Below are positions 12,001-15,000 of a DNA stretch of 64,000 nt, one piece after another. Where the stretch lies: the NCBI RefSeq assembly GCF_057098645.1, contig NZ_CM169472.1. One strand, given 5' to 3'. Each line of letters starts with the position of its first letter. Position 1 is the first letter of the stretch. Position numbers: made by a program.

Positions 12001-15000
12001 CAATTTGCAGATAAGCATTCACATGTTCAATTTCGTCGGCGAGAGTAACAAACTCCGAAGGCCGCTTTAAGTTTTTGCGGAAAAAAGTGGAAAGATACTG
12101 CACCAGCTGGCTGGCCTGTTCGCTGTCGCGGCGGATCACCGCTTTAATGGTGTTAAGCGCATTAAACAAAAAATGGGGATTCACCTGGGCGTGAAGCAGT
12201 TTGATCTCTGACTGGGTGAGCATCGCTTTTTGCCGCTCATATTGCCCGGCAAGGATCTGCGCCGAAAGCAATTGCGCAATCCCCTCACCCAACGTGCGGT
12301 TGATTGAACTGAATAAACGGTTTTTGGCTTCATACAATTTGATGGTGCCCATCACCCGCTGATTTTCACCACGCAACGGAATTACCAGCGTCGACCCCAG
12401 TTTGCATTGCGGATGCAAAGAGCAACGGTAAGGTACTTCGTTGCCATCAGCGTAGACCACTTCACCGGTTTCAATCGCTTTTAAAGTATAAGTTGAAGAA
12501 ATCGGTTTGCCGGGTAAATGGTGGTCGTCACCAATTCCGGTAAAGGCCAGCAATTTCTCTCGATCGGTAATCGCGACTGCACCAATATCCAGTTCCTGAT
12601 ACAGCACCTGAGCCACTTTCATGCTGTTCACTTCGTTAAACCCCTGGCGCAAAATGCCTTCCGTCGAGGCTGCCACTTTCAGCGCAGTGGCAGAAAAAGC
12701 CGAAGTGTATTTTTCAAACATCGCGCGTTTATCGAGCAATATACGCATAAACAGCGCCGCGCCGACGGTATTGGTGACCATCATTGGCGCAGCAATATTA
12801 CTCACCAGACGCACCGCATCTTCATAAGGTCGGGCGATCGCAAGGATGATCAGCATTTGCACCATTTCAGCGACGAACGTGACGGCACCGGCGGTAATGG
12901 GGTTAAAGACTTTATCAGTGCGCCCGCGGCGGATCAGGATGCTGTGTACCAGGCCACCGAGTAATCCTTCAACGATGGTCGAGATCATGCAACTTAACGC
13001 GGTCATGCCCCCCATCGAATATCGATGTAAGCCGCCGGTCAGCCCAACCAGCCCACCGACGACCGGACCGCCGAGTAAGCCGCCCATTACCGCGCCTATC
13101 GCACGGGTATTGGCAATAGAATCGTCAATGTGCAACCCAAACCAGGTGCCCATGATGCAGAAGATGGAAAAGACGATGTAGCAGAGAAATTTATGCGGCA
13201 GACGAACCGTGACCTGCATTAACGGTATGAATAATGGCGTTTTACTCATTAACCATGCAATGACTAAAAAAACGCACATCTGCTGAAGCAGCAGCAACAC
13301 CAGATTAAAATCGTACATACCCGCAAACCACACTTCCCTTTAAAACGCGTAACATACATTGCCTGCGTTTAACTTTCTTTGAACTCTTGCAGAAAAATGA
13401 GAATTCGTGAGTACGATCACTCAAAATCGCCTGGCAAAAATAAAATCACCCTATAGATGCACAAAAAACGGGCAAAACTACCTGGTTCGCAAAACTGCGT
13501 CTAAAGTTAAACCGGGACCTCGCGAGCAAGGGTGAGACGATGGCGCTTTACACAATTGGTGAAGTGGCGTTGCTTTGTGATATTAATCCTGTCACGTTAC
13601 GCGCGTGACGCAACATTTTTAAAAATCAACGAAGATCGTCCAGGAGCGCCGATTTTCAAGGGTTGGACAGATAATTCGTTTTCGATGTCGACGAACTTCG
13701 ACGGATTTCGCCTATAAAAAGTGTCCCATACATGCCCCATTGATGCCCCATAGACAATATCAGCAATTGACACTGGTTATCTATACAACTAAAAATAACA
13801 CCTGTACATAACCACAGTTACAGGAGGGTGTTATGCGTGTTGAGAGCTGTATCGCTAAAGAAAAAATCAGCAAAATGCCAAAAGGTTCTGTTCCTGCCCT
13901 GCAACAGGAAATGCTGCGCCGTATCAGGAAACGATATGACAATGCAGAAATCATCATCAAATCTGCCAGTAATGATGGACTCACTATTTTAAGAGCCACA
14001 GATAAAGAGTCCGCACACAAATTTGTACAGGAAACACTTCAGGAAGCCAGGGAAACAGCGGACGACTGGTTTATTCACTGACTAAAATCCCGTCCACATG
14101 CCGGGAATTTCCTATGTCCGAAGAAAATGGTGTGGTTAACTAAGCAAAAGTGTCCCTTTATCGGTATAGCAACTCATTTTGTTAACATACGGTTGCAAAA
14201 TTGATGACAAGTGTTTATTTTATCCACAAGAAATGTATGCAAACCAGAATTGGGAAATGCATTTATAAAATAAGGAATAGCAGATATGTTTGCAGCAAAG
14301 CCCGAATTAAGTCAAAGATGTATTTCTGGACTCCTCACAACTGGGCCAAATGATGAAAACGTAAATAATAAACCGTCAAGTGATATGCCGAACAGAATCA
14401 AACCAGTTGTAAGCGATTCACAAATCGGTATATATACAACTGACAGTAATACTCTGAAGGATGGATTGTGTAGCCAAGCCCACATAGGAACTCAACCTTA
14501 TCGGCCAGGTGCTGACTCGCCGATAACTGTGAGATCATTCCTACAAATCACACTTTCCAACAATAATTACAAATCATTAGAGCATCTGCAAACACGAGCA
14601 GAGAATTATCTGAGGTATCGCAAAGCAGAAGAGAATATTCTGCGTTCGACCGTTGAGGGGCTAACCAATCCAGAATCTCCTGTATTCAAACAAACAGCAT
14701 GGATGGGGCATCTGGAGCGTGGCCTTTGGAAAACGGAAACACGCTGGGATGGAAACGACCGCGAGCAGCTAGGCAAAGAGGCTCTTGGCTCAGAGGAGCC
14801 AAAACCTGGTTCACCATTTTACGGTAGTCGTGGACTAAAATTATCCGACAGTGCGCATTCTGCCTTCTCAATGATGCTGTGCGGTTCTGAAGGTCCATTC
14901 ACAAAAGAACAAGCACTCTCTGGTTTCGAGCTTGCTCAAACTGGCCAAGTGCTGGCTGGAAGGCTAAAGATTCAGGAGCGAGTTAAATTCCGCGCAGACA

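Follow-up and report, generated by a model that had tools for sequence, protein, structure and literature searches.

Truncation of mlrA after codon 22 by a lambdoid prophage at the VT1-Sakai/BP-4795 attachment site

In a 64,000-nucleotide stretch of NCBI RefSeq assembly GCF_057098645.1 (contig NZ_CM169472.1), referred to here in its entirety as the window, the reading frame of mlrA (also named yehV) is cut after codon 22 by a prophage junction. The gene encodes MlrA, a MerR-family activator required for expression of csgD, curli and cellulose (PMC5931665). The truncation by the prophage junction is real and far beyond chance, and it almost certainly reflects the site-specific integration, at a 20-bp core within mlrA, of a temperate lambdoid phage of the VT1-Sakai/BP-4795/JLK-2012 attachment type. 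At the level of sequence, the junction, the core, the identity of the phage and the absence of Shiga toxin (stx) genes from the window can each be read directly. The junction, the core and the associated phenotype have all been described before, and the feature corresponds to the truncated yehV' and attachment site already known from VT1-Sakai.

With respect to the breakpoint itself, translation of the plus-strand open reading frame (ORF) at 13540-13608 gives MALYTIGEVALLCDINPVTLRA, followed by a TGA stop codon. MlrA residues 1-22 match this ORF at 100% identity in tblastn (E 1e-9), and no further pieces of mlrA were found by tblastn anywhere in the 64-kb window. The MlrA query for these searches was entered by hand, and the DNA alignment is the stronger evidence for the truncation. 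Specifically, window positions 13340-13607, which comprise part of the btsS-mlrA intergenic region and the 5′ end of mlrA, are identical to K-12-like genomes at 268 of 268 positions; pairwise alignment with the K-12-like locus shows every base to be identical up to 13607 and identity at chance level beyond it. The stop codon is a product of the junction, as codon 23 of intact mlrA (TGG, W23) becomes TGA through the joining of TG from mlrA to the first phage base, A13608. A 561-bp junction query (window 13340-13900) searched against 5,426 complete Escherichia coli genomes found a match in 5,425, and in genomes with mlrA annotated as intact only query bases 1-268 were covered, ending at window position 13607 with 99-100% identity. 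The genes upstream of the remnant, btsR and btsS, are the usual chromosomal neighbours of mlrA, and RefSeq labels the corresponding 66 nt of strains RM9872 and E110019 an incomplete pseudogene. In terms of protein function, MlrA as defined by NCBIfam NF011617 contains a MerR helix-turn-helix (residues 4-72), an MlrA helical domain and an MlrA C-terminal domain (limits on the intact protein from Pfam and NCBIfam are 5-42 for MerR and 4-72 for MerR_1), whereas the window encodes residues 1-22 only of the full-length 243.

The breakpoint falls exactly at the end of a 20-bp sequence, CCTGTCACGTTACGCGCGTG, within mlrA codons 17-23. When the K-12-like bacterial attachment site (attB), the junction in the window, both the integrase-side and the dinI-side junction of JLK-2012 and the integrase-side junction of 14EC001 are compared, no other stretch is invariant. 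The VT1-Sakai record (AP000400.1) annotates the same 20 bp as "attachment site" at the same offset from the mlrA ATG (+48 to +67). In the JLK-2012 record the attachment (att) repeats are annotated at both ends as 21 bp; the additional base, a C preceding the core in strain DEC5E, is a T in the window, as in K-12. Within the window the core is present once, with zero copies in the reverse complement; a second core and the 3′ part of mlrA are missing from the window because the prophage extends beyond position 64000. Around the breakpoint, the inverted hexamers GTCACG (13591-13596) and CGTGAC (13604-13609) enclose a 7-bp spacer, TTACGCG (13597-13603). This is the layout expected of core-type integrase binding sites flanking an overlap region, for which TTACGCG would be the candidate. 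The same 20-bp core is written twice in tandem in the record of vB_EcoS_phi330 (PV189401.1, 2459-2500). We did not accept this record as a true phage attachment site (attP), as the tandem core suggests a sequence stitched together from prophage ends; it supports the sequence of the core and is no independent proof of attP.

On the other side of the breakpoint, the DNA from 13608 onwards matches JLK-2012, BP-4795 and VT1-Sakai and continues into a full set of lambdoid genes, so that the arm beside the core is homologous to known phages of the VT1-Sakai/BP-4795 attachment type. Over the first 693 phage bases, identity is 99.1% to JLK-2012 (dinI-side end) and 96.5% to the end of BP-4795; over the first 284 it is 93% to VT1-Sakai and YYZ-2008. 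At least 468 of the 5,426 complete genomes (at least 8.6%) carry the same junction, counted as matches to at least 80% of the junction query, with 98-100% of it matched in the examples listed. Taken together, these comparisons uphold most of what had been proposed in a first-pass annotation made from the sequence alone. The truncation after codon 22 and its coordinates were exact, a prophage junction was correctly named as the cause, and the core, predicted at about 13590-13610, was found essentially where expected, at 13588-13607.

The closest phage record is that of JLK-2012 (JQ347801), an stx-negative prophage in mlrA of the O55:H7 strain DEC5E. It shares with the window an stx-less TerB module (tciA/tciB) after the antiterminator gene Q, and it differs in its immunity and early region, in which an stk kinase gene is present and IS629, an insertion sequence (IS) element, lies at another place; it also has three tRNA genes after Q, as opposed to one in the window. 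The O157:H7 Stx1 prophages VT1-Sakai (Sp15) and CP-933V, located in yehV/mlrA, have the same core in the same orientation. The VT1-Sakai record contains an identical 69-nt "yehV' truncated protein" (22 codons plus TGA, +0 to +68 from the ATG), and its first phage gene, as in the window, is dinI, accompanied by a promoter and an SOS box. VT1-Sakai differs in the presence of stx1 and in its cargo past dinI, where a YkgJ-like ORF takes the place of espV and nleA. The record of BP-4795 (O84:H4; AJ556162/NC_004813) ends exactly where the phage DNA of the window begins; this phage differs in being Stx1-converting, with stx1 present. According to PMC9413875, which cites Creuzburg 2005, BP-4795 integrates at yehV and encodes NleA4795 and two IS629 elements. 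Atypical enteropathogenic E. coli (EPEC) E110019, O145:H28 strains (RM9872 and others) and 14EC001 share both the junction and the dinI-espV-nleA cargo. The number and position of IS elements in these prophages differ from the window, with IS1 missing from E110019, and espV, intact in the window, is split by an IS3 element in RM9872.

In the mechanism that we propose, a tyrosine integrase would have recombined the phage attP with the identical 20-bp CCTGTCACGTTACGCGCGTG in mlrA codons 17-23, an anatomy that fits classical lambda-type integration into a protein-coding attB. The window would then contain the promoter-proximal junction, which is integrase-distal in phage convention and corresponds to attR in the JLK-2012 record. 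Integration would cut the MerR-type helix-turn-helix of MlrA in two, the native mlrA promoter would yield a 22-residue peptide only, and the rest of mlrA would lie beyond the prophage, about 58 kb away and without a start codon of its own. Many phages with attachment sites inside genes bring a replacement for the gene end that they displace; this one supplies none for mlrA. MlrA-dependent activation of csgD would thereby be lost, with weak curli and biofilm formation as the expected outcome, and precise excision would restore the gene.

Alternatively, the junction could stem not from primary site-specific integration but from a rearrangement, for instance a deletion mediated by an IS element or recombination involving two prophages. 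IS elements are indeed frequent in this prophage, which contains an IS1 and an IS3-family element, and the homologous prophage of RM9872 has lost its other end to an IS3 element. Against this, the breakpoint coincides exactly with the canonical core, the position at which the phage arm begins is that seen in VT1-Sakai, BP-4795 and JLK-2012, and there are no IS ends near 13608. Because the match to the canonical core and arm is exact to the base, we exclude an IS-derived or recombinational origin of this junction for practical purposes, and consider a rearrangement exceedingly improbable. It is also conceivable that MlrA function is kept, either through a phage-borne start that yields an MlrA with an altered N-terminus or through excision frequent enough to act as a reversible switch. 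Reversible excision of a prophage that controls a host gene in this way (active lysogeny) has a precedent in comK of Listeria. For the first of these variants the relevant evidence comes from the far junction in 14EC001, where RefSeq calls a 228-aa ORF (NZ_CP024127.1, 26772-27458) "mlrA" with no pseudogene flag. This ORF starts at ATC, and its product would be without residues 1-15, the first part of the MerR helix-turn-helix. Followed upstream from the core at this junction, the mlrA frame stays open for only 11 codons, none of them ATG, GTG or TTG, before it meets an in-frame TAA at a distance of 36 nt. The missing start codon and the in-frame TAA thus indicate that intact mlrA is not rebuilt there, and the label in 14EC001 is an artefact of homology-based naming. 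The first-pass annotation had named an intact mlrA reconstituted at the far junction as evidence that would speak against its reading; none exists in 14EC001, the closest complete relative. Published work on the distal fragments bears on both variants. Distal mlrA fragments are transcribed after induction, run-off transcription can lead to their expression, recombinant versions conferred some Congo-red affinity, and spontaneous excision is detectable by PCR, yet the fragments did not restore biofilm formation and, in O157:H7 PA20, cells cured by excision and hence restored in mlrA were rarely recovered (PMC5931665). Overall, we judge retention of MlrA function to be very unlikely.

Several observations weigh against the reading of a straightforward, intact integration with loss of curli regulation. 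The best matches among complete genomes are only 96-99% identical and contain gaps, and they form a mosaic, in which full identity to RM9872 is confined to the junction, the cargo region matches E110019 at 99.1%, and the early and late region matches 14EC001 at 99.7%. Integrase, excisionase and the far junction lie beyond position 64000, so a later deletion at that end is possible. Such decay has occurred in O145 strain RM9872, in which the IS3 element removed the early region of the prophage and part of the mlrA 3′ remnant, leaving 450 nt (about the last 150 codons) of the latter. With regard to phenotype, the Congo-red affinity conferred by recombinant distal fragments, as mentioned above, counts on the same side, as do two O145 insertion strains in which plasmid-borne mlrA did not rescue Congo-red binding or curli (PMC3874044). 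These two strains imply that other defects can dominate.

That disruption of mlrA reduces curli and biofilm, as the first-pass annotation had stated, is nonetheless established in the literature (PMC3874044, PMC5931665). Prophage insertion in mlrA limits both traits; among non-O157 Shiga toxin-producing E. coli the insertion was present in 4 of 19 strains, including two stx1-negative O145 strains, and plasmid-borne mlrA restored curli in 2 of the 4 insertion-bearing strains (PMC3874044). From this published work on other strains, regulation of csgD, curli and biofilm in the strain represented by the window is probably impaired unless the prophage excises.

Although neither integrase nor excisionase is located within the window, comparison with relatives provides a model for the remainder of the prophage. 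Except for where the IS3 element is inserted, window positions 45714-64000 and the 14EC001 prophage are 99.7% identical. Next in 14EC001 come cIII, kil, gam, bet, exo, an excisionase gene and a gene for a 428-aa integrase (with Arm-DNA-bind_2 and Phage_integrase domains); beyond these lie the core, the remaining part of mlrA, yohO and yehW. A second core and the 3′ part of mlrA are likewise present at the far end of JLK-2012. By analogy with these relatives, the window genome would carry its integrase, excisionase and far junction in the corresponding places, with the junction expected about 7.8 kb past the end of the window and a prophage length of about 58 kb.

The first-pass annotation had also described the prophage as Stx1-type, a description that holds for the attachment site and the phage backbone family but not for the toxin. 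In Stx1-converting phages the stxAB genes are found between Q and the lysis genes, and none were found there. Searches by tblastn with Stx1A, Stx1B and Stx2B (query sequences entered by hand) over the whole window gave no match better than E 0.28. The interval between Q and nanS-p, the usual position of the stx operon in Stx phages, has the same stx-less arrangement in JLK-2012 and 14EC001. The prophage carries espV and nleA instead of stx. It thus shares its attachment site with Stx1 phages, yehV being among the standard integration sites of stx phages (PMC9413875), and its integrase would be expected to be of the shared type as well.

These observations have consequences for annotation and typing. 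The mlrA site can hold a toxin-negative, effector-carrying phage, which matters for PCR typing schemes in which occupancy of yehV stands in for an Stx1 phage. The junction can serve as an annotation marker for groups of attaching-and-effacing E. coli in which mlrA is occupied, and it places the strain represented by the window among them (its relatives include O157:H7, O55:H7, O145:H28 and atypical EPEC E110019). Moreover, gene-presence screens based on annotation would wrongly score the promoterless 3′ remnant in 14EC001 as an intact mlrA.

The features of the locus and of the prophage are collected in the table below. Prophage genes were assigned on the basis of ORFs and Pfam hits and by transferring annotations from RM9872, JLK-2012, 14EC001 and E110019; the late, lysis and replication genes lie on the minus strand.

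Table. Features of the mlrA locus and the adjoining prophage, in window coordinates
Feature	Position	Strand	Basis or remark
btsR	10917-11651	-	upstream neighbour of mlrA'
btsS	11633-13318	-	end at 13318 by annotation transfer from RM9872
btsS-mlrA intergenic region with native mlrA promoter and leader, unaltered	13319-13539	+	100% identical to K-12-like genomes
mlrA', codons 1-22 of mlrA (yehV) plus junction-made TGA stop	13540-13608	+	translation, tblastn, alignment
20-bp att core CCTGTCACGTTACGCGCGTG, mlrA codons 17-22 plus TG of codon 23	13588-13607	.	invariant across junctions; annotated in AP000400.1
Lambdoid prophage, incomplete in window	13608-64000	-	ORF map, annotation transfer, Pfam
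Phage arm of att site (integrase-distal) and dinI control region	13608-13832	+	sequence scan, VT1-Sakai comparison
Candidate arm-type motif AAGTGTCCCAT	13719-13729		11 nt, 112 bp from core
Promoter-like site	13767-13796		promoter annotated at matching place in VT1-Sakai
LexA box CTGT-N8-ACAG	13802-13817		SOS box annotated at matching place in VT1-Sakai
dinI-like gene, first prophage gene, co-oriented with mlrA	13833-14081	+	Pfam DinI E 6e-15; DinI-like in RM9872, E110019, JLK-2012
espV, putative type III secretion effector, intact	14286-15494	+	400/402 identical to JLK-2012 EspV
nleA, type III secretion effector, NleA4795 type	16146-17387	+	93% to JLK-2012 NleA4795, 88% to RM9872 NleA
OspG/NleH-like effector-kinase pseudogene, frameshifted, between nleA and tail-fibre genes	17685 to ~19300	-	IS1-interrupted
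IS1 inside OspG/NleH-like pseudogene	17972-18739		768 bp, 9-bp target duplication
Tail fibre, lom, J, tail (tape measure), head, terminase and lysis genes	~19400-46000	-	
P22-type antirepressor gene, between tail genes K and L	26555-27601	-	
Arc-like repressor gene, divergent from antirepressor, between tail genes K and L	27806-28150	+	
nanS-p esterase gene	46176-48026	-	
Q to nanS-p interval, usual stx operon position in Stx phages	48027-49574	-	holds only TerB-family gene, small ORF, one tRNA
TerB-family gene	48505-48966	-	
Single tRNA	49186-49261	-	
Q antiterminator gene	49575-50063	-	
nin region, P, O, cII, cro	~50000-59400	mostly -	
cI-type repressor gene (LexA-like, Peptidase_S24)	59475-60179	+	Pfam, 14EC001 annotation
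IS3-family element (IS629/IS1203-like, OrfA and OrfB), between cI-operon ORFs and N	61768-63082	-	
N	63523-63906	+	

In terms of possible integrase contacts outside the core, the candidate arm-type motif listed in the table has a near-identical copy, AAGTGTCCCTT, at 14148, past dinI, and in 14EC001 the opposite arm contains an exact copy of AAGTGTCCCAT at a distance of 75 bp from the core. When one mismatch to AAGTGTCCCWT is allowed, 3 sites are found against 2.0 expected, which is not above chance; exact copies cluster within 540 bp of the core. The exact copies near the core, together with that in the other arm of 14EC001, are suggestive of arm-type sites.

The position of the junction raises the further idea that read-through from the mlrA promoter couples expression of dinI, espV and nleA to the signals that act on mlrA. 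The intact stationary-phase mlrA promoter does point into these co-oriented genes, with an att hairpin and a short T-run in between. A terminator scan between mlrA' and dinI returned as many sites as expected by chance and therefore offers no argument for or against read-through, and dinI has its own predicted SOS-controlled promoter. We regard such coupling as very unlikely; if true, the type III effectors or the RecA modulator DinI would follow signals that normally drive mlrA.

Several further observations concern the prophage as a whole. The OspG/NleH-like pseudogene is also present in E110019, where it does not contain IS1. The module of antirepressor and Arc-like repressor genes (26555-28150) is absent from the homologous RM9872 prophage. 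A 590-aa ORF at 52411-54183 lies on the strand opposite to the neighbouring nin-region genes; its sole match is phrog_9230 (unknown function), and it had zero matches in Pfam, NCBIfam or PADLOC. It has the appearance of a moron, an accessory gene transcribed on its own. The 14EC001 prophage contains the same IS3-family element about 1.2 kb further along, and the two copies look like independent or moved insertions; the copy in the window may affect early-left transcription and hence the competence of the prophage for excision. Directly downstream of cI, a 113-aa DUF3024 ORF (60240-60581) has a match (E 7e-42) to PDC-S43, a candidate defence family of PADLOC, and this ORF and a pair of unknown ORFs after it (60598-61086 and 61083-61703) sit where lambda has rexAB.

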